From NCBI GenBank assembly GCA_030648645.1, contig JAUSHL010000018.1, positions 2,225 to 66,224 of the forward strand: DNA of 64,000 bases. Direction: 5' to 3'. The position numbers and the translations under genes were made by a program. Numbering within the stretch: position 1 is the stretch's first letter; each line of letters opens with the position of its first letter. Positions 9,720 to 35,738 of this stretch are shown here, one piece after another. The notes beneath the pieces were generated by a model that was not told the origin of the DNA, made no database searches, and worked only from the letters and a program-made list of their open reading frames with translations. Origin of the DNA: Candidatus Daviesbacteria bacterium. GTDB lineage: Bacteria; Patescibacteriota; Microgenomatia; Daviesbacterales; UBA10151.

Positions 9720-12700
9720 TTGCTCATGGAGAAAATAGTTTTAGTTGATGGGAATGCTCTGCTTCATCGGGCCTATCATGCCACACCTCCACTTTCTACC
9801 TCCAAGGGTGAGCTAATCAATGCAGTTTTTGGTTTTACTTCCATGTTACTTAAAGCCTTAGATGAGTTAAAACCGGAATATATTGCGGTAACTTGGGATT
9901 TAAAGGCTAAAACTTTTCGGCATGAGGTCTTTGAGCAATATAAAGCCAAAAGAAAACCAATGGATGAGGGATTGGCTTCTCAATTTGACCGGGCTCATCA
10001 AATTATTGAAGCTTTTAATATTCCTCAGTTTAGTCTGATAGGATATGAGGCAGATGATCTAATAGGCACGCTTGCAACGCAAGCAGTGAAACTCGAAACT
10101 CGAAACTCGAAACTCGAAACGATCATTGTAACAGGGGATAGGGATTTAATGCAGTTAATAAGTGAGAGGGTAAAAATTTTCATGCCTAAAAAAACTTTAG
10201 CTGATGTTGGATTATATGGAGAAGAAGAATTTGCCTTAAAATATGGCTTTGCCCCCAAAAATTTAGTGGATTTTAAAGCCTTGGCAGGGGATCAGTCAGA
10301 TGGCATTCCGGGTGTGCCTAAAATTGGCGAAGTTTCTGCTACAAAATTAATTCAGGAATATCAAACTATTGAAAATATTTATAAAAATTTGGACAAAGTA
10401 CCCGAGAGAACCAGAAAATTATTGGAAGAAGGCAGAGAATCTGCATTTTTAAGTCATAAATTAGCCACTATTAATACAAATACACCTATTAAATTAGATT
10501 TACCAGCCTGCAAGGTGCATGATTTTGAGAGAGAAAAAGTGGTGGAATTATTTAATGAACTACAATTTAAGAGTTTAATTTCCAGAATTCCTAATATTCC
10601 CTCTGTCATTCCTGCCCGCTTCGCCATAGCTTCAGCGAGGCGAGCGAAAGCAGGAATCCAGAAAGCCTGGATCCCGGATCCCTTCGGCCTCGCTCAGGGC
10701 GGGCAAGTCCGGGATGACAATAGTGAGATTGCTTCTCCGGCTTTGTCGGATCGCAATGACAATAATATGACTGATAGTGATAAAAATCAAAACCAGGCTA
10801 CAACAGATTTAGACAAAGAAGTTGTACCAATTTTAGAAGAAATGTCTAAGATCGGAGTATTGGTAGATCTGGTGTTTTTGAGTAGGCTTAGTGAGGATCT
10901 GCATAGTAGATTAGATAAGATTGAACAGGAAATTTACTCAATTATAGGGCATCAGTGTAATCTTAACAGCCCAAAACAGTTACAAATTGTTCTTTTTGAT
11001 GAACTAAACTTACCGGTTGTAAAAAAGACTAAAACCGGACGGTCAACTGATGAAGAAACCCTGCTGGAGTTAAAAACAGCTCATCCTGTAGTTTCTTTAC
11101 TTTTACAATATAGAACTCTTTATAAATTAGTTTCTACTTATGTTGATGCTTTACCAAAAAGTGTGGGGGATGATGGCCGTGTCCATTCCACTTTTAATGT
11201 GGAAGGTGCTTCAACCGGTAGGATTACTTCCAATCAACCAAATTTACAAAATATTCCGGTTAAAGGGGAGATGGGTTCGGAAATCAGAAAAGCCTTCATT
11301 GCTCCCAAAGGGTCGACCAAAGGTCGATCGCCCTCTGGGCGAAAAGTTTTGTTGGGGGCCGATTACTCACAAATTGAATTGCGGATCCTTGCTGATCTGT
11401 CTCAGGATGAAAATCTGATCAAGGCATTTAAAGAGAATCAGGATATTCATACGCTTACTGCCGCCAAAATTTTTGAAGTTCCGCTGGATAAAGTAACAAA
11501 AGAGCAAAGAAATGTGGGAAAAACTATGAATTTTGCCACTTTGTATGGACAAGGACCTCATGCTCTGTCGCGTCAACTGGGAGTGGAATATAATACTGCA
11601 AAGCAATACATAGATGAGTATTTTGAGCAATTTCCTAAAATTAAAATTTGGAAGGAAAAAGTTTTAAAAGGAGCTTATGAGACAGGATATGCAGAAACTC
11701 TATGGGGGAGAAAAAGATATATTCCGGAGCTTAAAGCCGGCAATAAAATGATGCAGTCTTTTGGGGAAAGAGCAGCTATAAATCATCCGGTTCAGGGTTG
11801 TCTTCCCTGGGAAACAAAAATTCTGACTTCAAGCGGTTATATTCCTATAGGAGAGCTATATAGTGCAAAAGATAAGCCTTCTCTGGTTTGGGATGGGAGT
11901 GATTGGTGGTTTTATGAAGTGTTAGATAGAGGTGAAGCACAATTAGCGCAGATTAAATTTTCTAATGGACAGGTATTTAAATGTGATATAAGACACAAAG
12001 TTTTAACTGTTGATGAGAATGGCTATGAATGGAAAGAATTTTCGCAACTTAGGTCTGGGATGAAAGTATGTTTTAGTATGCCAACAGTTCACGAGTTCTC
12101 TTCTACACAGTTTCGCTTTAAACATACGTCGAACGCTCACAATGGGATTTCTTTAAATATTATTGCAGATAAGGAGTTATGGTACTGGTTAGGATATTAT
12201 ATTGGAGATGGATATCTACATAAACGTTGGAATAGAGCTTGGGCTTTTTCATTAACCTACTTTTTTGGAGAACACGAGAGCGAAAAACGGGATAATTGTA
12301 TAAAATTTTTTACTTCACTAGGTTTGCATCCTACGCAGAGAAAGACTACACATCGCCCTAAAGTTAAATTATCCACACGTTATTTGGTTACAGTGTACTC
12401 TCAGGGTTTTGGAAGGTTGTTTGAGGAGATAGGATTATTAGGTGGAAAAAACGCTCATACTAAACGTTTGCCTTCGCGTATCTTCAAAGAATCTTTAGAG
12501 AATCGTTGTGTTTTTATTAAGGGAATTATGGATTCTGATGGGTATGATGGAATAAAGGAAAACAATAATCCAAGTATTCATATTTGCCAAAGAGGATTGT
12601 TGCAAGAGATACAACTTTTATTAAAAACCGTAGGGACAGAAAGTCAGATTAGGGGACCTTATCTCTATAACGAAAAAATTTCATATCGTCTAGATATTCA

Positions 12701-13409
12701 CAGAAATGCTCTGGCACGGGCTTTACGTCAGGGTGAAATGTCGCGGTTTGACCGTTATTTAAATCGACTAACACCTCAATTTCTAGTACAGGAAGCTGTT
12801 TCTTTAGGTGGTCATTTACAAAAAACTCAATTTGCTACAGCTTCAGATTATGTGTTATATAGCCGATGGAAAAATGGAGGCTCCTCTTCTCTCTATTATT
12901 TTCAAACTTGGCTAAAACGTAATAACGTCATATTACAATCACCTGTTTATCATTTTAATGAAATTACGGAAATAGATATACTTGATCAGTTTGAAACAAC
13001 TTACACTTTAAGTGTTCCTGGGAGTCATAGATTTGATAGCGAAGGTGTTATTTCCAAAAATACAGCAGCTGATATGATAAAAAAAGCTATGGTGGAAATA
13101 AATAATCAGTTATCAGTTCTCAGTGGTCAGTCGTCAGTTTTTGGTCAATCAGTTGTCGGTTTGTCTGTAACTGGTAAACGGAAAACTGGAAAACTAAATT
13201 CCGAAAACCGAAAACAGAAAACTGATAACTGTAAATTAATCCTCCAGGTCCATGATGAATTATTGTTCGAGTGCAACGAGAACTCTGCAGAAGAACTGGG
13301 GAAAATGGTCAAAGAAAAAATGGAAAATGCCCTAAAATTATCTGTTCCTGTGATAGTAGATTTAAAAACAGGTCCAAATTGGGGAGAAATGAAGTCCTTG
13401 AAAATTTAG
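9720..13409 (+). CDS. polA: DNA polymerase I with an intein and several in-frame repeat insertions
   Basis: 5'-3' exonuclease N-terminus, polymerase motifs DYSQIELR, KTMNFATLYG, QVHDELLFE; extein junction INHPVQG|...|TAADMIKKAMV. Confidence 0.9.
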   Translation: MLMEKIVLVDGNALLHRAYHATPPLSTSKGELINAVFGFTSMLLKALDELKPEYIAVTWDLKAKTFRHEVFEQYKAKRKPMDEGLASQFDRAHQIIEAFNIPQFSLIGYEADDLIGTLATQAVKLETRNSKLETIIVTGDRDLMQLISERVKIFMPKKTLADVGLYGEEEFALKYGFAPKNLVDFKALAGDQSDGIPGVPKIGEVSATKLIQEYQTIENIYKNLDKVPERTRKLLEEGRESAFLSHKLATINTNTPIKLDLPACKVHDFEREKVVELFNELQFKSLISRIPNIPSVIPARFAIASARRAKAGIQKAWIPDPFGLAQGGQVRDDNSEIASPALSDRNDNNMTDSDKNQNQATTDLDKEVVPILEEMSKIGVLVDLVFLSRLSEDLHSRLDKIEQEIYSIIGHQCNLNSPKQLQIVLFDELNLPVVKKTKTGRSTDEETLLELKTAHPVVSLLLQYRTLYKLVSTYVDALPKSVGDDGRVHSTFNVEGASTGRITSNQPNLQNIPVKGEMGSEIRKAFIAPKGSTKGRSPSGRKVLLGADYSQIELRILADLSQDENLIKAFKENQDIHTLTAAKIFEVPLDKVTKEQRNVGKTMNFATLYGQGPHALSRQLGVEYNTAKQYIDEYFEQFPKIKIWKEKVLKGAYETGYAETLWGRKRYIPELKAGNKMMQSFGERAAINHPVQGCLPWETKILTSSGYIPIGELYSAKDKPSLVWDGSDWWFYEVLDRGEAQLAQIKFSNGQVFKCDIRHKVLTVDENGYEWKEFSQLRSGMKVCFSMPTVHEFSSTQFRFKHTSNAHNGISLNIIADKELWYWLGYYIGDGYLHKRWNRAWAFSLTYFFGEHESEKRDNCIKFFTSLGLHPTQRKTTHRPKVKLSTRYLVTVYSQGFGRLFEEIGLLGGKNAHTKRLPSRIFKESLENRCVFIKGIMDSDGYDGIKENNNPSIHICQRGLLQEIQLLLKTVGTESQIRGPYLYNEKISYRLDIHRNALARALRQGEMSRFDRYLNRLTPQFLVQEAVSLGGHLQKTQFATASDYVLYSRWKNGGSSSLYYFQTWLKRNNVILQSPVYHFNEITEIDILDQFETTYTLSVPGSHRFDSEGVISKNTAADMIKKAMVEINNQLSVLSGQSSVFGQSVVGLSVTGKRKTGKLNSENRKQKTDNCKLILQVHDELLFECNENSAEELGKMVKEKMENALKLSVPVIVDLKTGPNWGEMKSLKI
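10088..10120. repeat. (CTCGAAA)n heptanucleotide tandem repeat inside polA
   Basis: gaaactcgaaactcgaaactcgaaactcgaaac; encodes KLETRNSKLET; same heptamer at 50149-50172. Confidence 0.8.
10605..10718. repeat. GTCAT...GATGAC hairpin mini-repeat inserted in frame in polA
   Basis: gtcattcctgc...cccttcggcctcgctcagggcgggcaagtccgggatgac; near-identical copies at 16059-16108 and 29388-29477. Confidence 0.8.
11799..13061 (+). other. intein (421 aa) with LAGLIDADG homing endonuclease domain inside polA
   Basis: Starts with Cys after NHPVQG; block B-like DIRHKVLT; two LAGLIDADG-type motifs (LGYYIGDGY, IKGIMDSDGYDG); ends ...GVISKN followed by Thr, with extein resuming TAADMIKKAMV. Confidence 0.75.
13117..13232. 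repeat. low-complexity repeat insertion in polA (CAGTCGTCAG and GAAAAC motifs)
   Basis: Adds ~35 aa between the KKAMV helix and motif C; a related CAGTCGTCAG repeat occurs in recF at ~21995-22040. Confidence 0.45.
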
Positions 13410-16058: not shown

Positions 16059-16108
16059 AGATTCCGTGTCCCTTCGGCCTCGCTCAGGGCGGGCAAGCAC
16101 GGAATGAC
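16059..16108. repeat. GATTCCGTGTCCCTTCGGCCTCGCTCAGGGCGGGCAAGCACGGAATGAC mini-repeat
   Basis: Shares the CCCTTCGGCCTCGCTCAGGGCGGGCAAG core with 10605-10718 and 29388-29477. Confidence 0.8.
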
Positions 16109-16124
16109 AGTTTTGGAATAAAAT

Positions 16125-29082: not shown

Positions 29083-30903
29083 ATGATATTTGGTAAATTT
29101 GCGGAGTATTTGGAAAAATTAGAAACAACTTCTTCCAGATTATCTTTGATTGATATTTTAGCTGATCTTTTTTCTGAAGTTAAAGCAGATGAAATTGCTG
29201 AAGTGGTATATCTAATTCAGGGCAGAGTAGCTCCATTTTATGAACCAATTGAGATTGGGATGAGTGAAAAGTTAGTAGCAAGTGCAATTGCTCAAGCTTA
29301 TGGAGTTTCTAAAGAAGAAGTGTTGCAAGAATATAGCAAAGTGGGGGATTTGGGGAAGGTGACAGAGAAACTGGCGGGGCCTGCTATGTCATCCCTGCGA
29401 AAGCAGGGATCCATAAAGAATCCGGATGGATCCCGGATCCCTTCGGCCTCGCTCAGGGCGGGCAAGTCCGGGATGACAGTGGGAACGGTTTCTGAAACCT
29501 TATTGGAAATTGCCAAGATTTCTGGAAATGGGACTGTGGAAAAAAGAGTTAATCTTTTGTCTGATTTGTTAAAACAACTTGATCCAGTATCTGCCAAACA
29601 TTTAGTCAGAATTCCGATGGGAGCCTCCCGTCTTGGAGTTGGAGATCCCACAATCCTCGAAGCTTTTGCCCTCGCTAAATTGGGAGATAGAAAACATAGA
29701 AAAGTGTTGGAGGATGCTTACAATAAAACTTCTGATTTAGGAATTATTGGGCAGACTTTATGGAAAAGTGGAATAAAGGGGATTGAAAAATTGGATGTGG
29801 AGGTGGGAAGACCTTTAAGATCAGAGCTGACAGAAAGATTACCGGATGCAAAAACAATTTTGGAAAAAATGGGAGGCAGAGCTCATTGCCAACGGAAATT
29901 TGATGGATTTCGTGTACAAATCCATAAAAATGGGAATAATGTCAGATTATTTTCCAGAAATTTAGAAGAAACTACCCCAATGATGCCAGAGATTGTGGCA
30001 GGAGTATTAAGTCAGGTCAAAGCCAAAACTGCTATTTTGGACTCAGAAGCTCTGGCTTACAATCCTGATTCAGAGGAATTTTTACCTTTTCAGGAAACCA
30101 CTAAAAGGAGAAGAAAATATGATATTGAAGAAATGAGCAAAAAATTACCCCTGAAAGCTTTTGTTTTTGACATTATGTATCTTGATGGAAGATCGTTGGT
30201 CGGAGAATCGTTAGTCGAAAGAATGAAAAAATTAAAACAAGCAGTTTCAGGAGATGAAACCCTTATCCCTGAACCTGGGGTTTTTACAGATTCTGCAGAA
30301 AAAATCCAGGAACTTTTTGATGATGCTATTACCAAAGGGCTGGAAGGATTAATTGTTAAAAAACCTGATTCTAAATATGAAGCAGGAGCAAGGAATTTTA
30401 ATTGGGTAAAGCTAAAACGGCATAGTGCCGGGGAATTACACGACACCATTGATTGTGTAATTTTAGGATATATTTTTGGTAAAGGGAAAAGGTCTTCTTT
30501 TGGGGCAGGGTCACTCTTGGTTGGTGTTTATGATGAGAAAAAGGATATGTTTGTCACAGTTTCCAAAATTGGGACAGGACTTACAGATATAGAATGGAAA
30601 GAGGTACATAGGAGAGCTGATAAAATTTCTGTTGATAAAAAACCTGCCAGAGTTGATTCTGTGATAGTCCCTACAGTTTGGATTAAACCAGAGATTGTGA
30701 TAGAAGTTTTGGCAGATGAGATCACTAAATCTCCTACTCATACAGCAGGGAAGGTAGGAGATGAGCCTGGATTTGCCCTCAGATTTCCCAGATTGGTGAG
30801 GTTTAGAGCAGCTGACAAAAGACCTGAGGATGCCACAACTGTTCAGGAACTTTTAGAGATGTATAATATGCAATATGAGCATAAAAAAGAACAAAATAAG
30901 TAA
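29083..30903 (+). CDS. lig: ATP-dependent DNA ligase
   Basis: KxDG adenylation motif (QRKFDGFRVQIH), DNA-binding, adenylation and OB domains. The ORF opens at 28969 but that stretch overlaps the GGDEF gene, so the in-frame ATG at 29083 (MIFGKFAEYLEKLETTSSR) is preferred. Carries a mini-repeat insert at 29388-29477. Confidence 0.8.
   Translation: MIFGKFAEYLEKLETTSSRLSLIDILADLFSEVKADEIAEVVYLIQGRVAPFYEPIEIGMSEKLVASAIAQAYGVSKEEVLQEYSKVGDLGKVTEKLAGPAMSSLRKQGSIKNPDGSRIPSASLRAGKSGMTVGTVSETLLEIAKISGNGTVEKRVNLLSDLLKQLDPVSAKHLVRIPMGASRLGVGDPTILEAFALAKLGDRKHRKVLEDAYNKTSDLGIIGQTLWKSGIKGIEKLDVEVGRPLRSELTERLPDAKTILEKMGGRAHCQRKFDGFRVQIHKNGNNVRLFSRNLEETTPMMPEIVAGVLSQVKAKTAILDSEALAYNPDSEEFLPFQETTKRRRKYDIEEMSKKLPLKAFVFDIMYLDGRSLVGESLVERMKKLKQAVSGDETLIPEPGVFTDSAEKIQELFDDAITKGLEGLIVKKPDSKYEAGARNFNWVKLKRHSAGELHDTIDCVILGYIFGKGKRSSFGAGSLLVGVYDEKKDMFVTVSKIGTGLTDIEWKEVHRRADKISVDKKPARVDSVIVPTVWIKPEIVIEVLADEITKSPTHTAGKVGDEPGFALRFPRLVRFRAADKRPEDATTVQELLEMYNMQYEHKKEQNK
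29388..29477. repeat. GTCATCCCTGCGAAAGCAGGGATCC...GGGATGAC mini-repeat inserted in frame in the ligase
   Basis: Shares a 45-nt core with 10660-10718. Confidence 0.8.
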
Positions 30904-31589
30904 TGGCTACTAGTTATGAAATGTTGCGGCACATGTATACCCAGTTGGAAACAGGTATTAATGGTTTTGCTACGGATGACGATCGGTATACCGATCGTCG
31001 GTATGTGGATCTTGGTAGAAACAAAAAGGATAAGTTCTTAACTATATCAACTAGCGTAAGCCTTCTTTATTACCCCAATCCAAGTTACCGTCTCAATTTA
31101 AGTATTGCTTATAGCCCTAAGGTAAAAAGGGGTGGTTATGGTGACTTAGATAGCCTACCTCCCCATTTAAAGATGAGATTTCCGTTAATAGGTGTATTTG
31201 ACTTTGATTGTGATAGACCCGAGCAAGTAACTACTCCCTTTGGTGCTTTACCCAGGTATATTATTGGCTCAGATGATAAATTGTATACGATACAAAATTA
31301 TTATTTCCTAAATTTCCAAGGGCAAGCGGTAAAAGTTGAAGAAGTATCTCAAGCTCAAGGTGAGAACCAGACTTTAGAAGAGGCGCTTAATGATTTTGGA
31401 GATGAAGGAGATATTGTTAGAGTATCATTTTCTCCTAGAAGGAATGGTAAAGGTAGTTGGAGTGTAGTCGTCGATTTAAGAGGTGGAGATTTGGAAAAGC
31501 TCGGATTTTTGGCTAGTGAGATAGAAAACGGGCAATTCAAAAAAGTGACTTTGCAAGATCTGGGCTTGCGCTCAGATTTCCAAGATTAG
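30903..31589 (+). CDS. hypothetical protein (228 aa); start overlaps the ligase stop (TAATG); C-terminus runs into a ligase 3' fragment
   Basis: No family recognised. Confidence 0.5.
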   Translation: MATSYEMLRHMYTQLETGINGFATDDDRYTDRRYVDLGRNKKDKFLTISTSVSLLYYPNPSYRLNLSIAYSPKVKRGGYGDLDSLPPHLKMRFPLIGVFDFDCDRPEQVTTPFGALPRYIIGSDDKLYTIQNYYFLNFQGQAVKVEEVSQAQGENQTLEEALNDFGDEGDIVRVSFSPRRNGKGSWSVVVDLRGGDLEKLGFLASEIENGQFKKVTLQDLGLRSDFQD

Positions 31590-31678
31590 TTAGATTTAGA
31601 GAAGAAGATAAAAGACCAGCAGATGCTGCAACTGTTAGAGAGCTGGAGATGTATGAGCAACAATACAAAAAGAGCTAG
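31568..31678 (+). pseudogene. orphan duplicate of the DNA ligase 3' end (copy 2)
   Basis: Translates ALRFPRLVRFREEDKRPADAATVRELEMYEQQYKKS, matching the ligase C-terminus ALRFPRLVRFRAADKRPEDATTVQELLEMYNMQYEHKK. Confidence 0.7.
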
Positions 31679-31703
31679 GTTGTATTATTAAATATAATGC
31701 AAG

Positions 31704-31732
31704 TTGACAAATATAATGTAAATTGGTAAAAT
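31704..31732 (+). promoter_or_regulatory. sigma-70-like promoter (TTGACA-17-TAAAAT)
   Basis: 9 nt upstream of the vapB-like ATG at 31742. Confidence 0.5.
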
Positions 31733-31741
31733 TAATGTAAT

Positions 31742-31990
31742 ATGTACACAGTTTCTATTACTTCCCAAGGGCAAATAAGTATTCCTGTTAAACTCCGTCG
31801 TTTACTCGGCTTAGATAAATATAATAAGGCTATTATTTCTGAAAATGCCGGAAAATTAATAGTGGAGCCAGTAGGAGACATATTAAGCTTAGGTGGAACT
31901 TTTAAAACAAAGAAAAGACTACCATTTAGAAAAATCCATGAAGGATTTGAACAATATCTAGCAGATGAGGGAATGAAGGGAATGAGATGA
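31742..31990 (+). CDS. AbrB/SpoVT-type antitoxin (VapB-like)
   Basis: MYTVSITSQGQISIPVKLRRLLGL swapped-hairpin motif. Confidence 0.55.
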   Translation: MYTVSITSQGQISIPVKLRRLLGLDKYNKAIISENAGKLIVEPVGDILSLGGTFKTKKRLPFRKIHEGFEQYLADEGMKGMR

Positions 31991-32391
31991 CTAGTTTGGT
32001 TATAGATACCAACACCCTCCTAAGATTTTTACTAAACGATATTCCATCTCAATACAAATTAATCCACCAGAAAATTCAACAAGCTAAAGCGGGTAAAATA
32101 AAGTTAATTATTCCACAAATTGTAATGTTTGAAATAATCTATACTTTGGATAAAGTATACGGTTTTGATAAGAGAAAAATACTCCAAGGAATACAAGAAA
32201 TATTTTCGTCAGATTATTTAGAAATTCAGGATAAAGAAATTTTTATTGAGACCACAAAAATGTATGAAAACAGCAATAAAGTAAGTGTTGCAGACTGTTT
32301 TATATCTTCGTTTGCCAAGGCAAATGATGCAAAACTTTTTAGTTTTGATAAAGATCTCAATAAGCTCGTTTCCCAGGTTGGTAAGATTTAG
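31987..32391 (+). CDS. PIN-domain toxin (VapC-like); 3' end overlaps ligase-end copy 3 in another frame
   Basis: LVIDTNTLLRFLLND, SFDKDL motifs. Confidence 0.65.
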   Translation: MTSLVIDTNTLLRFLLNDIPSQYKLIHQKIQQAKAGKIKLIIPQIVMFEIIYTLDKVYGFDKRKILQGIQEIFSSDYLEIQDKEIFIETTKMYENSNKVSVADCFISSFAKANDAKLFSFDKDLNKLVSQVGKI

Positions 32392-32470
32392 AGAAACAGA
32401 TAGGCACTTTGAGGATGTTACAACTGTGAAAGAATTAGTAGAAATGTACCAACAGCAATATAAAAAATGA
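32369..32470 (+). pseudogene. orphan duplicate of the DNA ligase 3' end (copy 3)
   Basis: Translates FPRLVRFRETDRHFEDVTTVKELVEMYQQQYKK; the ORF-track ORF 32285-32470 is this fragment extended upstream through vapC. Confidence 0.7.
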
Positions 32471-33081
32471 ATCAGGAAATAAAAAACGGGAAAATTATAT
32501 TTTACAAGCAACTTATACTTATTCCTCCTGAATTGGCTGTACAGTGTGGTATTAGGACTGAGGCTCCAGTATTCATTGATCCTTGGGCATACTTTCCATA
32601 TGCACAAGAAAAAAAAGACAAAAAACTTTTAATTTATCAAGGAGGGCTAACTGTTCGGACGCATAATATAGATCAGGTTCGTGGTGGTATTAGATATTGG
32701 CAGAATAATTATTTAACAGGTGTAGCACGGCGTTGGTCGGTTGTATTAGAGCCTTTGGGGAAAACGTATCCCGATGAATTTTTTCATGCGGCACCAACCT
32801 ACAGGTCCGAAGCTATAACAGTAAGAAAAATTGTTCCGTTATGTGTGGGAAGACATAATGATGATCCTAATGTAGAAGGTCATAATGATGTAAGAGAAAT
32901 TCATGAGGGGGTGATCTTTGAAGGTGAATATGGTTTATGGCCAATTTGTAGTTTAGATAGACATAAAGACCCAGATTCTATTGATTGGCGTTACAGAAGA
33001 AGTTTTAATAATGGATCAATAAGTCGTATAAAGTATGGTTTTGTTGTGGATGAACAAGGAGGAATAAGTTTCTATAAATAA
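32467..33081 (+). CDS. hypothetical protein (204 aa); start overlaps the stop of the ligase fragment (ATGA)
   Basis: No family recognised. Confidence 0.5.
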   Translation: MNQEIKNGKIIFYKQLILIPPELAVQCGIRTEAPVFIDPWAYFPYAQEKKDKKLLIYQGGLTVRTHNIDQVRGGIRYWQNNYLTGVARRWSVVLEPLGKTYPDEFFHAAPTYRSEAITVRKIVPLCVGRHNDDPNVEGHNDVREIHEGVIFEGEYGLWPICSLDRHKDPDSIDWRYRRSFNNGSISRIKYGFVVDEQGGISFYK

Positions 33082-33092
33082 TCTTATCTATT

Positions 33093-33126
33093 TGCCATAC
33101 TTGCACCGATCGGACTAAGTATGGCA
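33093..33126. promoter_or_regulatory. type C spaced inverted repeat (TGCCATACTT-GCACCGATCGGACT-AAGTATGGCA)
   Basis: Perfect 10-bp arms around a CCGATCGG core; ends 5 nt before the ATG of paralog C. Confidence 0.5.
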
Positions 33127-33130
33127 GAGT

Positions 33131-33661
33131 ATGGATATGGGGTTGTATATTAAAAAAGGAAGTTTAAGCCAAGCGTTATTGACTGCTTTGGAAAAAACTG
33201 TTGATGGTATGGTAAGACTGGAAGATTTTGCCTATCATTCAGGTTTTTATGCATATGGTGGTGGTTGGCAGTATCCTTTGAAAAAATCTGCTTTGTCCAA
33301 AGCTATTTCCAGATTAAAGGAAAAAGGTTTTGTTGAAACCGAGGGTAATGAAATAGAGTTAGTTCTGAAACTAACAGATGAGGGGAAACAGGCATTATTT
33401 TTATCTGGTATTTCTGAGGAAAAAAAATGGGATGGAAAATGGAGAATTGTTATTTTTGATATTCCGGAGGAGAAAAGATTAATCAGAAATATGTTCAGAA
33501 GAAATCTCAAGAAATGGGAATTTAAACCTTTGCAGAAATCTGTTTGGATTTCCAAAAAACATGTTACAGAAAAACTTATTGATTATATAAAATATTTAAA
33601 AATAGAGGAGTGGGTTTTAGTAATTGAATCTGATAAAATTGGCCCAAAATCCATACTTTGA
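33131..33661 (+). CDS. wHTH plus Cas2/PaaX-C-like domain protein (paralog C, no TM anchor)
   Basis: KKWDGKWRIVIFDIPEEKRLIRNMFRRNLKKWEFKPLQKSVWIS. Confidence 0.55.
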   Translation: MDMGLYIKKGSLSQALLTALEKTVDGMVRLEDFAYHSGFYAYGGGWQYPLKKSALSKAISRLKEKGFVETEGNEIELVLKLTDEGKQALFLSGISEEKKWDGKWRIVIFDIPEEKRLIRNMFRRNLKKWEFKPLQKSVWISKKHVTEKLIDYIKYLKIEEWVLVIESDKIGPKSIL

Positions 33662-33683
33662 ACGATCGGATCAAGTATGGATT
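33650..33683. repeat. second type C element (TCCATACTTTGA-ACGATCGGA-TCAAGTATGGA) overlapping the stop of paralog C
   Basis: Same arm and core architecture as 33093-33126. Confidence 0.5.
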
Positions 33684-33725
33684 AAAATAGAATTTGAGTA
33701 TCAATTGTTGTGATATAATACTTCT

Positions 33726-33986
33726 ATGCCAAAGGTATTAAATTTTAGAGTCATTATCGAACAAGATGAGGATGGAGTTTTTGTAGCCTCTGTGCCGGCT
33801 ATTCCAGGTTGCTATACTCAAGGTAAAACTTATGATGAAGCAACCAAACGTATAAAAGAGGTAATTGAACTATGTTTAGAGGAGGCTAAGGATAATCCTG
33901 CATATAGAGCGAGGATTGATTTTAGCGAAAACTTTGAAGATAGATTTTTGGGAATAACCAATATCCCAGTAATCAATACTCTTTAA
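33726..33986 (+). CDS. hicB: HicB-family antitoxin
   Basis: FRVIIEQDEDGVFVASVPAIPGCYTQGKTYDEA HicB/UPF0150 N-terminus. Confidence 0.6.
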   Translation: MPKVLNFRVIIEQDEDGVFVASVPAIPGCYTQGKTYDEATKRIKEVIELCLEEAKDNPAYRARIDFSENFEDRFLGITNIPVINTL

Positions 33987-34216
33987 TGCCTAAATTACCT
34001 GTTATTTCCGGAAAAGAATTAATTAAAATCCTTTTCAAACTTGGTTTTATAGAATCCAGGCAAACTGGTAGTCATAAAATTTTCAAGCATTCGGATGGTC
34101 GCACGACTTCAGTACCTATGCACTCAGGAGAAGATTTAGGTAAAGGTCTCTTGAGAAAAATTCTTCATCAAATTGAGGTTCCACCAGATCAATTTCAGAA
34201 ACTATTAAAAAGATAG
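33986..34216 (+). CDS. hicA: HicA-family mRNA interferase toxin
   Basis: ISGKELIKILFKLGF...RQTGSHKIFKH HicA signature. Confidence 0.65.
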   Translation: MPKLPVISGKELIKILFKLGFIESRQTGSHKIFKHSDGRTTSVPMHSGEDLGKGLLRKILHQIEVPPDQFQKLLKR

Positions 34217-34824
34217 TGAAACATATTATGTCCAAAGTTGATGCGTTGGCTGATTTAAAAAAGAAAATGGATGATGATAAAACCTTGCCTCTTCGGGAAG
34301 GGGCGACACAGTTGGTTTTTGGGGAAGGAAATCCTAATGCTTTAATTTATTATTTGGGAGAAGGACCTGGGTTTCATGAGGATAAGCAAGGCAGACCTTT
34401 TGTGGGGATGGCAGGAAAATTATTGGATGAGACAAATTTATCAATTGGAATAAAAAGAAAAGATGTTTATATTTCCAATGTAGTCAGATTTAGGCCACCT
34501 TCAAACAGAGATCCGGAAGAGTTTGAAATTATGGCTTTTCAACCCTATGTGGATGCCGAAATTCAAATAATAAAACCAAAAATAATTGTGACTTTGGGTA
34601 GATTTTCTATGGGAAAATTTTTCCCAGGAGAAAGAATTTCAGGTATTCATGGCAAACCTAAAAAAATGCTTTGGCAGGGATTGGATTTGGTAGTAATTCC
34701 AATGTATCATCCAGCAGCAGCTCTTCGAAATGGCAATATGATGCAATCTTTTAAAGAAGATTTTAAAATTATTCCCCAAATAATGGAAGAGTTGCATAAA
34801 ACAGAACAGATAAGTTTGTTTTAA
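34216..34824 (+). CDS. uracil-DNA glycosylase family 4
   Basis: GEGPG motif followed by GRPFVG. Confidence 0.8.
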   Translation: MKHIMSKVDALADLKKKMDDDKTLPLREGATQLVFGEGNPNALIYYLGEGPGFHEDKQGRPFVGMAGKLLDETNLSIGIKRKDVYISNVVRFRPPSNRDPEEFEIMAFQPYVDAEIQIIKPKIIVTLGRFSMGKFFPGERISGIHGKPKKMLWQGLDLVVIPMYHPAAALRNGNMMQSFKEDFKIIPQIMEELHKTEQISLF

Positions 34825-34837
34825 ATTTGTTTGGGTT

Positions 34838-34950
34838 GTTCGGGGTCCTGTCGTTCGACAGCCCCGTCCGATGTCCTCTCCGGCAACTGCCGGATTGTGG
34901 GCACTCGACGGGGCGCCCCGTCTCACGCCACCCCTCACAAAGTGCACCAC
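34838..34950. other. GC-rich structured element (three consecutive GC hairpins) in an AT-rich genome; candidate small structured RNA
   Basis: CGGGG[CTGTCGttCGACAG]CCCCG, CCGGCAacTGCCGG and GACGGGGCGCCCCGTC; about 65% GC; lies between udg and pth. Confidence 0.35.
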
Positions 34951-35006
34951 ATTTTTCAGTTAACCTTGATTTCGCTGTTTTTTGAAATAAATGTTAATAT
35001 ACTTAT

Positions 35007-35594
35007 ATGAATTTGAAATTAATTGTTGGGCTTGGAAATCCGGGAGAGAAATATGAAAATACCAGACATAATTTGGGGTTTAGAGTGGTGGATGAATTGA
35101 GTGAGAAGATAGAAGGTGGAGAATGGAAACTGGAAAAGAAATTTAAAAGCGAGATCCTTCTCCTTCGACAAGCTCAGGATCAGGATGACAATTTGATTTT
35201 GGTGAAACCCCAGACTTTTATGAATGAATCCGGATTGGCTGTTAAGCTTTTGGCAGATTATTACAAAATTTCAGTGGAGGATATCATTATTATTCATGAT
35301 GATGTAGATATTGTTTTGGGGAAAATTAAAGTAAGACAAGGAGGTTCCGGAGGGGGGCATCATGGGGTGGAATCAATAATCAAGCAGTTACTGAATGATC
35401 AATTTGTCAGAGTCAGATTAGGGATTGGGGGAGTTAAAAGATTAAGTGAAGAGAGAAACATCGAAAAATTTGTGCTGGAAACATTTTTGCCCAATGAGAG
35501 ATCTAAAGTTAAACACATGATCAAAACAGCAGTAGGGGCTATAAAACTTTTATTGGAAAAAGGTCTGGAAAAAGCTCAGAATCAGTATAATTAG
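35007..35594 (+). CDS. pth: peptidyl-tRNA hydrolase
   Basis: LIVGLGNPG..Y..TRHNLGF N-terminal signature. Confidence 0.85.
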   Translation: MNLKLIVGLGNPGEKYENTRHNLGFRVVDELSEKIEGGEWKLEKKFKSEILLLRQAQDQDDNLILVKPQTFMNESGLAVKLLADYYKISVEDIIIIHDDVDIVLGKIKVRQGGSGGGHHGVESIIKQLLNDQFVRVRLGIGGVKRLSEERNIEKFVLETFLPNERSKVKHMIKTAVGAIKLLLEKGLEKAQNQYN

Positions 35595-35603
35595 TTGACT
35601 ATT

Positions 35604-35699
35604 GTCATTGCGAGCGTAGCGAAGCAATCTGATCCTGGACAAGCCAGGATGACAGAAGAGATTGCTTCGTCGCAAGCTCCTCGCAATGACAGGGATGAC
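35604..35699. repeat. GTCATTGCGAGCGTAGCGAAGCAATC ... CTCGCAATGAC / GGATGAC mini-repeat cluster
   Basis: Palindromic units; same family as 18886, 22926 and 48090. Confidence 0.8.
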
Positions 35700-35738
35700 A
35701 TTTGACTAAATATACTAATATAAAGTAAACTATCTCTC

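Follow-up and report, generated by a model that had tools for sequence, protein, structure and literature searches.

Orphan 3' ends behind a DNA ligase gene of Candidatus Daviesbacteria point to serial C-terminal displacement

A complete ATP-dependent DNA ligase gene in Daviesbacteria DNA is followed, on the same strand, by two orphan copies of its own last 33-38 codons, with small genes between and behind the copies. The three ligase ends probably record serial "C-terminal displacement" of the ligase by homology-anchored recombination that needed no element-encoded integrase. The stretch analysed here, referred to as the window, is 64 kb long, and its relevant features are collected in Table 1.

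Table 1. Features of the ligase-to-pth region, in window coordinates
Feature	Position	Strand	Evidence
ATP-dependent DNA ligase, in-use, 606 aa	29083..30903	+	Pfam DNA_ligase_A_N, _M, _C; TIGR00574 3.5e-125
Copy 1, in-use ligase 3' end	30756..30903	+	nhmmer E 1e-29
p228, 228 aa, start-coupled to ligase stop (TAATG, 30901-30905)	30903..31589	+	ORF
Copy 2, orphan ligase end, 38 codons, one codon deleted, own TAG stop	31558/31560-31678	+	tblastn E 3e-13; nhmmer E 3e-20
Promoter-like site, sigma-70 type, upstream of vapB	31704..31732	+	TTGACA-17-TAAAAT, 11/12, TG of extended -10
vapB-like antitoxin, AbrB/MazE fold, 82 aa	31742..31990	+	PF04014 1.2e-3; TIGR01439 2.3e-5 (both under curated thresholds)
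vapC, PIN-domain toxin, 134 aa	31987..32391	+	PF01850 3e-12
Copy 3, orphan ligase end, 33 codons, own TGA stop overlapping next ATG	32368/32369-32470	+	tblastn E 7e-11; nhmmer E 4e-16
p204, ORFan, 204 aa, start-coupled to copy 3 (ATGA, 32467-32470)	32467..33081	+	ORF
PaaX_M/Cas2-like regulator, variable interval	33131-33661	+	
HicB-HicA, variable interval	33726-34216	+	
Family-4 UDG, variable interval	34216-34824	+	
pth, peptidyl-tRNA hydrolase, conserved right border of variable interval	35007..35594	+	TIGR00447 6e-56; synteny in ~45 loci

Ligase ends and small genes in the window

The window ligase is 76-77% identical to Daviesbacteria ligases, and its gene is the conserved homology anchor of the locus. 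The in-use end, copy 1, consists of motif VI (LRFPRLVRFR..DK) and the C-terminal helix, followed by an extension that reads ..EHKKEQNK before the stop. We searched the 64-kb window by tblastn with the last 60 ligase residues and by nhmmer with a profile built from 86 in-use ligase ends. The tblastn search revealed no ligase end in the 64 kb beyond copies 2 and 3, and among the 73 ORFs of the window the ligase alone has orphan end fragments. Both orphans are open through to their own stops: copy 2 reads ..GLALRFPRLVRFREEDKRPADAATVRELEMYEQQYKKS, its homology beginning at profile position 14, and copy 3 reads FPRLVRFRETDRHFEDVTTVKELVEMYQQQYKK, beginning at position 33. An earlier sequence-only reading had described the ligase, both fragments, the 228-aa ORF, VapBC with a promoter before it, the 204-aa ORF and the two start couplings, all of which we find where it placed them. 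It had also noted that the genes preceding the fragments run into them in another frame. Indeed, the stop of p228 falls inside copy 2, from which its last codons are read, and that of vapC falls inside copy 3, which supplies its last 7 codons.

The 228-aa gene had been listed as one of the cassettes; it is no stray one, being the regular ligase neighbour in a sub-lineage. Its four homologs (48-71% identity) all lie directly downstream of a ligase, in the related loci L151-L154, and their C-termini stop earlier than that of the window protein. The C-terminal ligase extension (..EHKK(E/G)QNK or ..KKEQK, then the stop) is common to the window, L151 and L152, and the p228 gene is start-coupled in all three. 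Because the extension and the coupled gene occur together, the in-use end and p228 look like a single natural unit; they would have come jointly and represent the latest arrival. In the second cassette vapB and vapC overlap by 4 nt, and the promoter-like site before them, the best-scoring one in 6.3 kb, is homologous to the promoter of the vapBC cassette in L096. p204 has no Pfam or NCBIfam match, is unrelated to the p228 family and finds only itself among 5.8 billion proteins.

The copies have diverged. Copies 1 and 2 share 79% of nucleotides over 77 nt (or 76/100), slightly more than the approximately 65-70% first estimated for all copies; copies 1 and 3 agree at 65/93 positions, or at 73% over 52 nt. 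Exact matches between two copies reach at most 8-12 nt, depending on the pair, and across all three no invariant run is longer than ~7 nt. Pairwise pS reaches 0.74-0.93 with pN of 0.15-0.21; since pN/pS stays at 0.18-0.29 while pS is nearly saturated, the copies must have evolved as functional coding sequence. Purifying selection acted on them while they diverged as functional ligase ends in separate lineages. Every orphan, in the window and in the related loci, is nearer to in-use ends of foreign genomes than to that of its own genome, which ranks only 11th-83rd of 87.

These relationships bear on a local origin, in which the ligase end was duplicated in tandem and diverged in place while the intervening genes were replaced. 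The nearly equal copy spacings, 793 and 792 nt, fit such direct repeats and count against displacement; in the related loci L097 and L100 an orphan even abuts the in-use stop codon directly. However, the substitution pattern is that of functional genes rather than of decaying duplicates, the orphans resemble foreign in-use ends more than their neighbour, no cryptic similarity exists between the cassettes, and one orphan pair equals the working end of a different lineage (L075, see below). We therefore regard local duplication as very improbable, and the recent tandem duplication already rejected by the sequence-only reading finds no place in these data.

Repeats in a metagenome-assembled genome also invite the suspicion of a chimeric or collapsed contig. 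DGRs are abundant in CPR genomes, so that a diversity-generating retroelement with template and variable repeat comes to mind as well. Assemblers based on k-mers cannot confuse the copies, however, because these have no exact word above 12 nt in common. An independent Logan assembly of run SRR13727527 contains a 3373-nt contig that spans all three copies and is 100% identical to window positions 30694-34066, and the architecture recurs in unrelated samples. A retroelement is contradicted by mismatches that are not adenine-specific (8/16 between copies 1 and 2) and by the lack of a reverse transcriptase nearby. On the sequence evidence, both explanations can be set aside with near certainty.

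Recurrence in related loci

We compared ~85 related loci, designated by L-numbers. The locus has the conserved order Fic-(GGDEF)-ligase-pth, and the ligase-to-pth distance ranges from 17 to 5081 nt; near-empty sites, the comparison proposed beforehand, are present in L115, L114, L131 and L139. The site behind the ligase is therefore a recombination and insertion hotspot, as had been suspected. A single ligase end is present in 72 of the related loci. Besides the window, L151, L002/L072, L080/L085, L092, L093, L003/L084 and L097/L100 carry orphan ends, with at least six arrangements among the related loci. An orthologue of copy 2 with the same junction lies in L151 (positions 1115-1231). L151 has this junction without vapBC, copy 3 and p204, which indicates that the array was built stepwise; HicBA is also missing there from the corresponding place.

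The direction of displacement is evident from L002 and L072. Their orphans (..PEDATTVKEISEMY..) differ from the in-use end of L075 by six synonymous substitutions and one non-synonymous substitution, whereas their own in-use end is only ~70% identical to their orphan. In the NJ tree of full-length ligases L002, L072 and L075 group together (87/100), as do these three with L071 (100/100). Between L072 and L075 the gene bodies are 87-98% identical, but the last 60 nt only 60-71%. Since the orphan matches the working end of the sister lineage, the working copy is the newcomer. This bears out the earlier proposal of incoming segments that carry a replacement end, with the resident one displaced downstream. 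Copy 2 of the window is such a displaced former ligase end, and copy 3 would be the oldest resident end. The orphans of L002 and L072, and those of L080 and L092, differ mostly by synonymous substitutions (pN/pS 0.05-0.08). One old displacement followed by neutral decay does not give such values. This counts against a simple displacement history, which has to be supplemented by recurrent events or by orphans being used again.

The sequence-only reading had likened the array to elements that integrate into the 3' end of a gene, and had suggested looking for a recombinase with a matching att site. Such a rival explanation would involve integrase-less CIME-like or micro-CIME-like cassettes whose attP mimics the ligase 3' end, inserted serially by a recombinase whose gene lies on a helper element or at another place in the genome, with the orphans as attR. 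Integrase-mediated integration and accretion classically leave direct repeats of a gene's 3' end on either side of tandem inserts (PMC7563491). Several independent-looking orphans begin right after DKR, and two orphans derived from the 5' end of an EndoQ-like gene have endpoints no more than 3 nt apart, one of them (L099) in a young repeat with 3 mismatches in 72 nt. Yet neither the 64-kb window nor 20 representative proteins of the ligase-to-pth interval from 45 related loci include an integrase or transposase, and the ligase ends formed no hairpins. The predicted crossover near RFPRLVRF has no counterpart in a common point: orphan starts are scattered over profile positions 14-16, 33, ~64-67, 88 and ~115. 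The short identical stretches, the repeats that end exactly at the stop codon, the cargo translationally coupled as in ordinary genomes and the 0.7-0.8 kb cassettes that cut into the p228 and vapC frames likewise argue against site-specific integration, which we consider unlikely.

In relatives, at least six different gene ends occur in duplicate, and site-specific integration would need several specificities to produce them. They include the 3' ends of RecF (L003, flanking HicAB-like genes), Fic (L101) and an LRR protein (L104), and the 5' ends of Pth (L115) and of the EndoQ-like gene; in L096 the latter flanks a vapBC homologous to that of the window, and in L099 it forms the 72-nt repeat. 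Such a variety of gene ends around small inserts favours a general recombination route over one att specificity. Some boundaries nevertheless repeat. The E75, HicBA and tandem cases share a boundary after motif VI (DKR|AED), and L096 and L099 share one at codon 17-18 of the EndoQ-like gene. If illegitimate joins fell purely at random, such coincidences would not be expected, which counts against displacement; the junctions could go back to a common ancestor, be favoured by selection or mark a specific site of breakage.

A possible route and its known parallels

Homology-anchored displacement might proceed as follows. Donor DNA from related Daviesbacteria, carrying the 3' part of a ligase gene and whatever lies downstream, would pair with the resident ligase, a conserved and presumably essential gene. 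A first, homologous crossover would take place within the ligase. The other end would join either illegitimately, by homology-facilitated illegitimate recombination (HFIR), or through short homology, in a Campbell-type event or a double crossover via an existing orphan; in either case the join would fall in the final 60-120 nt of the resident ligase gene. The incoming end would then take over as the working end with its cargo gene behind it, and the resident end would be shifted downstream as an orphan with its own downstream gene still attached. From the layout of the window, the order of states may have been ligase-copy3-p204, then ligase-copy2-[promoter-vapBC]-copy3'-p204, and finally ligase-copy1-p228-copy2'-vapBC-copy3'-p204; orphan ends and downstream genes could be exchanged afterwards. 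A selective filter may account for the shortness of the orphans: in this genome with almost no intergenic DNA, a join in the redundant resident gene would be harmless, whereas an insert between long direct repeats would soon be lost by deletion. We found no donor-type genome in which a ligase directly adjoins vapBC or p204.

A similar arrangement arises in fungal mitochondrial genes, where mobile endonuclease ORFs bring a replacement C-terminus. Paquin et al. reportedly described in 1994 such an ORF in Allomyces atp6, with the original 3' end left downstream as a duplicate. As in the window, the insert lies in or after the 3' end, the gene gains a foreign end in frame and its native one becomes an orphan, but the cassettes of the window contain no recognisable homing endonuclease and p228 has no nuclease-like structural match. 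Integrases accrete ICEs, IMEs and CIMEs in tandem at tRNA genes or at the 3' ends of protein genes, for example at fda and the tRNA-Lys gene of streptococci (PMC7563491); SGI1 integration at trmE is outlined in PMC8409611. There, too, the insert's own 3'-end copy restores the target gene, direct repeats flank the units, and arrays can include units without recombination genes. In contrast, the window lacks a detectable integrase and a conserved core, its units measure just 0.7-0.8 kb, its repeats have variable boundaries and are 65-79% identical instead of near-identical att sites, and related genomes show the pattern at the ends of several different genes.

The closest parallels are the Rhs/CdiA C-terminal displacement (Jackson 2009, as cited in PMC5361080) and the sequential displacement of T6SS effector-immunity modules in V. 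cholerae (Kirchberger 2017, PMC5361080; PMC9711863). In both, a conserved gene body precedes a same-strand string of displaced 3' fragments that each keep a short homology, the newest unit adjoins the gene, older ones lie downstream with their attached gene, and no integrase is involved. The route proposed for these arrays is HFIR (PMC5361080, PMC9711863), with an upstream homologous anchor and an illegitimate join near the resident 3' end. According to the accounts of transformable bacteria cited there (de Vries and Wackernagel 2002; Prudhomme 2002; Meier and Wackernagel 2003), a one-sided homologous anchor integrates foreign DNA beside a conserved gene without mobile-element machinery; HFIR is a laboratory-defined process, and in the window only its footprints suggest it. 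Unlike Rhs and T6SS, the anchor here is a housekeeping DNA ligase in a CPR bacterium, the displaced ends are homologous and functionally equivalent rather than alternative toxin tips, and the cargo comprises unrelated small genes (p228, VapBC, an ORFan, HicBA). As these are not cognate immunity genes, there is no obvious selection to keep an old unit. The initial idea of a hotspot with replacement ends holds, and the ligase case is best read as a variant of the displaced 3'-end arrays known from Rhs and T6SS. The two leftover ligase ends are a record of successive small-gene insertions behind the ligase of an uncultivated member of the Daviesbacteria (CPR), most likely acquired by ordinary recombination with the DNA of relatives rather than through a dedicated mobile element.

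Orphan ligase ends and the genes between them

The 3' end of the ATP-dependent DNA ligase gene (copy 1, the end in use) recurs downstream in the window, a chromosome segment of a Candidatus Daviesbacteria (CPR/Patescibacteria) MAG, as two orphan ends, copies 2 and 3, with small genes between them. Nucleotide identity among the three copies is 65–79%, and the longest exact match between any two of them is 8–12 nt. The gene p228 (product of 228 aa) and vapC both stop inside the next orphan in a different frame. A sequence-only reading had described diverged ligase ends separating small gene cassettes, and all of its sequence-level statements on the array, including coordinates, start/stop couplings and frame-shifted stops, are borne out. 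Since no shared word exceeds 12 nt and an independent Logan assembly is identical to the window across 3373 nt, the array is not an assembly artefact. Among the 73 ORFs of the window, only the ligase has orphan ends. The three ends start at 30767, 31560 and 32369, giving start-to-start spacings of 793 and 792 nt. This near-equality is probably a coincidence, because in L151 (L-numbers denote ligase loci of related genomes) the first spacing measures 787 nt; a search for cryptic similarity between the cassettes as its cause found none. For annotation, orphan ends carry a warning: they give rise to small ORFs that are spurious, and they alter the C-termini of the genes beside them.

Features of the window and of related ligase loci
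Feature	Sequence	Position	Remarks
DNA polymerase I ORF	window	9720-13409	1229 aa
G+C-rich repeat	window	10645-10755	inside polA, in frame
G+C-rich repeat	window	16065-16112	
ATP-dependent DNA ligase	window	29083-30903	complete, three-domain
G+C-rich repeat	window	29380-29490	inside ligase, aa 106-144, in frame
p228	window	30903-31589	start coupled (TAATG) to ligase stop
Copy 2, orphan ligase end	window	31558-31678	last 38 codons; same strand as ligase; own stop codon
Promoter-like site	window	31704-31732	best in region; upstream of vapB-vapC
vapB-vapC	window	31742-32391	after promoter-like site
Copy 3, orphan ligase end	window	32368-32470	last 33 codons; same strand as ligase; own stop codon
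p204	window	32467-33081	start coupled (ATGA) to copy 3 stop
HicB-HicA cassette	window	33692-34216	
HicB-HicA cassette	L003	7780-8297	
HicB-HicA cassette	L153	1562-2094	
HicB-HicA cassette	L154	558-900	
G+C-rich repeat	window	~34827-34985	
G+C-rich repeat	window	35595-35705	
RecF orphan 3' end	L003	2007-2075	1.4 kb behind recF, HicAB-like genes between
Fic orphan 3' end	L101	5741-5794	response-regulator gene between
LRR-protein orphan 3' end	L104	10467-10544	403-aa ORF between, P-loop ATPase-like by eye
Pth orphan 5' end	L115	6411-6500	decayed
EndoQ-like 5' end, direct duplicate	L096	3654-3708, 4446-4500	17-18 codons; around vapBC
EndoQ-like 5' end plus promoter, direct duplicate	L099	1904-1975, 2361-2432	72-nt repeat, 3 mismatches
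E75 element	L002	7735-7806	
E75 element	L072	8409-8480	
E75 element	L080	8409-8478	
E75 element	L092	8406-8478	
E75 element	L093	8409-8450	hairpin lost
E75 element	L151	1240-1310	

Far from being a stray gene, p228 has four homologs (48–71% identity), each of them just behind a ligase. The conserved motif of p228, LKMRFPLIGVFDFDCDRPEQVTTPFG (aa 68–119, window 31104–31259) bears a weak likeness to ligase motif VI and the tail ALRFPRLVRFRAADKRPEDATTV (tblastn E 0.03 in the window), and a similar weak match is seen for the p228 homolog in L153; the likeness may be due to chance or to a very old captured ligase end. The second cassette is a predicted type II toxin–antitoxin operon of the VapBC type, a PIN toxin following an AbrB/MazE-fold antitoxin: VapC matches PF01850 above the cut-off (3e-12), VapB matches PF04014 (1.2e-3) and TIGR01439 (2.3e-5) under their curated cut-offs, and the two genes overlap by 4 nt behind a promoter-like site of their own. 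The 204-aa protein p204 is a true ORFan, finding only itself among 5.8 billion proteins and matching no Pfam or NCBIfam family; remote membership in the p228 family is rejected by an hhalign probability of 0.2%.

Other repeats lie nearby. A 30-nt palindrome, CCATACTTGCACCGATCGGACTAAGTATGG, stands on both sides of the gene for a PaaX_M/Cas2-like regulator (33095–33124 and 33651–33680) and is kept upstream of the ortholog in L151 (~1767–1798); it may be the operator of this regulator. Repeats some 110 nt long, rich in G+C and partly palindromic, are scattered through the window (local GC 0.46–0.48 versus 0.34 overall; 33.6% G+C for the whole window). Two of them lie in frame within protein genes, and the repeats resemble Rickettsia palindromic elements, which are MITEs that coding sequence tolerates. 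The ligases of L002 and L003 lack the G+C-rich insert or differ in that region, and in L097/L100 an orphan ligase end is split by a similar palindrome. The DNA polymerase I ORF appears by eye to hold a putative intein with a homing-endonuclease-like insert.

The ligase-to-pth interval in related genomes

Genome and metagenome scans gave at least about 150 ligase loci, about 85 of them close relatives, among the matches listed. Close relatives have the gene order Fic-(GGDEF)-ligase-variable interval-pth-(ZIP/DsbA), where pth encodes peptidyl-tRNA hydrolase. The ligase-to-pth gap spans 17 nt in L115, 50 nt in L114 and L131, and at most 5081 nt among the matches listed. The commonest gene of the interval encodes a PHP-like protein that resembles EndoQ by eye and has no Pfam match; TatD DNase, hydrolases, PRTase, IMPase, BrnT/BrnA, HicBA, VapBC and more are found as well. 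Given this range of lengths and the very different gene content, the interval is a hotspot. HicB-HicA cassettes occupy differing places in it from genome to genome; an extended -10 box, TGGTATAAT, is common to them and lies some 12 nt ahead of hicB, and an orphan ligase end stands behind the cassette in L003/L084 only.

Besides the window, orphan ligase ends are present in 11 related loci (L151, L002/L072, L080/L085, L092, L093, L003/L084 and L097/L100), all on the + strand downstream of the ligase, and 72 loci have a single end among the matches listed. More distant ligases (≤46% identity) have none. The orphans start at positions 14–16, 33, 64–67, 88 and ~115 of an nhmmer profile built from in-use ligase ends, and several begin directly after ligase motif VI (DKR|AED).

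The relatives also carry duplicated ends of genes other than the ligase, both 3' and 5'. The vapBC cassette enclosed by the EndoQ-like duplicate of L096 is homologous to that of the window, and the duplicate of L099 encloses a 390-nt insert with a minus-strand ORF. With 3 mismatches in a 72-nt repeat, the L099 event is recent. The ends of the two EndoQ-like orphans lie ≤3 nt apart, at codon 17–18. Since six different gene ends are duplicated, one att specificity cannot explain all of them.

Divergence of the ends and direction of displacement

Codon-wise comparison of the three window copies finds synonymous sites nearly saturated (pS 0.74–0.93) and few non-synonymous changes (pN 0.15–0.21; pN/pS 0.18–0.29), a pattern which argues that most of the divergence accrued while the copies were working ligase ends. 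Differences between orphans of related loci are likewise mainly synonymous (pN/pS 0.08 for L002 versus L072, 0.05 for L080 versus L092). Compared with 87 in-use ends of relatives, every orphan is nearer to foreign ends than to the end of its own genome, which ranks only 19th and 27th for the window orphans and 11th to 83rd for orphans elsewhere. Local duplication of the ligase end is rejected on the low pN/pS, the closer foreign ends and the lack of hidden similarity between the cassettes.

The direction of displacement was read from L002 and L072. The neighbor-joining tree of full-length ligases groups these loci with L075 (87/100 bootstraps), and all three with L071 (100/100). L075 has one ligase end, ..PEDATTVKEISEMYKQQYKK, and the end in use in L002 and L072, ..AEDCTTVAELKEMYKLQYKKD, is deviant. 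The orphan of L002 and L072, ..PEDATTVKEISEMY(E/N)QQYKK*, differs from the working end of L075 by 6 synonymous changes and 1 non-synonymous change, and is about 70% identical to their own in-use end. Identity between L072 and L075 falls from 87–98% in the gene body to 60–71% in the last 60 nt. The sister grouping, the match of the orphan to L075 and the drop in identity suggest that the orphan once was the resident end and that the end now at work is the newcomer. The converse fits equally well: a deletion between repeats in L075 would have returned an orphan to use, which relies on the same recombination between repeats.

By analogy with a newcomer end in L002/L072, and from a tail extension linked to p228, the in-use end of the window would also be a newcomer. 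The closest locus, L151, has the order ligase-p228-orphan end-...-PaaX-UDG-pth and the same p228/orphan junction; it lacks vapBC, copy 3, p204 and HicBA, and window 31659–33089 stands in place of L151 1218–1760. The in-use ends of the window (..EHKKEQNK*), L151 (..EHKKGQNK*) and L152 (..KKEQK*) have the C-terminal extension in common, and in all three p228 is start-coupled to it. Homologs of p228 without a following orphan stop 5–15 codons earlier than p228. Because of the shared extension, the coupling and these earlier stops, copy 1 and p228 look like a natural unit of ligase end plus neighbour, which would have displaced copy 2 at a join that clipped the end of p228. Copy 2 with the promoter and vapBC would earlier have displaced copy 3, to which p204 remains coupled. 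Within the window's own ligase, identity profiles against L071, L075 and L002 reveal no clear switch, the tail extension aside, and a donor arrangement for the window inserts was not found among the loci listed or the p204 protein matches.

Recombination with related DNA and its alternatives

Homology-anchored recombination with related DNA is the simplest account of the displaced ends. A conserved gene would provide the homologous crossover, and the second join would lie within the same gene of the resident genome, close to the gene end, and would be made through homology-facilitated illegitimate recombination (HFIR) or by way of an existing orphan. The ligase is a plausible anchor for HFIR, with bodies 60–98% identical between lineages. 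Joins would cluster near the gene end since intergenic DNA is very scarce in such a genome and a join that hits the redundant resident copy would do no harm, whereas long repeats would soon lead to loss of the insert. The same route has been proposed to explain T6SS immunity arrays and, at Rhs loci, the rows of orphaned 3' regions (PMC5361080, PMC9711863). C-terminal, or sequential, displacement is the closest known kind for the window array. As in Rhs, CdiA and T6SS effector–immunity arrays, a conserved gene is followed by same-strand orphan 3' fragments homologous to it, and the orphan would have been the resident end before the in-use end arrived (L002/L072 versus L075). Unlike those arrays, the window has no polymorphic toxin domains: the anchor is a housekeeping ligase, the ends are homologous, functionally equivalent C-termini (motif VI plus helix), and the cargo consists of unrelated small genes (p228, VapBC, p204) rather than immunity-like partners of the ligase. 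In the literature we found no CPR-specific account of such orphan gene ends.

Known insertion systems were considered as alternatives. Neither the 64-kb window nor 20 representative variable-region proteins from 45 related loci yielded an integrase, a transposase or a reverse transcriptase. The ligase ends fold no better than shuffled sequences (z −0.72, +0.27 and +0.74), which rules out an attC-like or other hairpin. Integrons comprise an IntI integrase, attI, and cassettes whose terminal attC sites form hairpins; the window has neither an integrase nor ends that fold better than shuffled ones, and an integron is rejected. Diversity-generating retroelements combine a reverse transcriptase with template and variable repeats differing at adenines. 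Only 8 of the 16 mismatches between copies 1 and 2 have A in one copy, the rest being of all kinds, and with no reverse transcriptase such an element is also rejected. Integration of an ICE, IME or CIME into the gene end is not supported, no tyrosine or serine recombinase being present in the window or the 20 proteins; att repeats with a common core disagree with the varying orphan starts and with exact matches of ≤12 nt between window copies. From the sequence-only reading, the idea of a hotspot stands, and so do replacement ends that stem from different lineages. An att-bearing element inserted by a trans-acting integrase has no support, given that no integrase was found in the window or the 20 proteins, that the boundaries vary and that several gene ends are duplicated.

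In five related lineages (L002/L072, L080/L085, L092, L093 and L151), a complete ligase end and the orphan that follows it are separated by E75, a conserved element some 75 nt long that the window lacks. E75 consists of GCTTGCGAAAWCTTCG, then a hairpin, then GCTACGWTGTTCTTAAA. Between L002 and L072 it is 97–100% identical, compared with about 87% for ligase and coding DNA there, and compensatory changes affect 7 of the 16 predicted hairpin pairs in four sequences. E75 has no Rfam match (a search of the window and three relatives gave only a tRNA), and the loci bearing it do not form a clade in any bootstrap of the ligase tree (0/100). It may be a terminator, a 3'-UTR element, a small RNA or a recombination signal. 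Together with the recurring breakpoints and the synonymous-biased orphan differences, E75 leaves room for a mechanism of greater specificity, or for recurrent exchange via orphans as right-hand homology arms. The same three observations, with breakpoints at motif VI and at codon 17–18 of the EndoQ-like gene, hint at a bolder reading, which we consider unlikely: short gene-end fragments would serve as portable homology arms or as targets of a novel nuclease or recombinase, and small cassettes, such as toxin–antitoxin pairs or single genes, would move between Daviesbacteria without a recombination gene of their own. If true, this would amount to integrase-free, integron-like gene gain in streamlined CPR genomes.

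The genomes of CPR bacteria are tiny and tightly packed, and to our knowledge the ways in which these bacteria gain genes are poorly understood. The ligase locus and its relatives form a readable fossil record, with one acquisition per displaced ligase end. The displaced ends would also give the direction of the process—the new gene adjoining, the old pushed away—and point to related lineages as donors. Should the pattern prove genome-wide, gene gains of uncultivated lineages could be counted and dated from their orphan gene ends, which would also show that a conserved core gene can act as a landing pad without mobile-element machinery.
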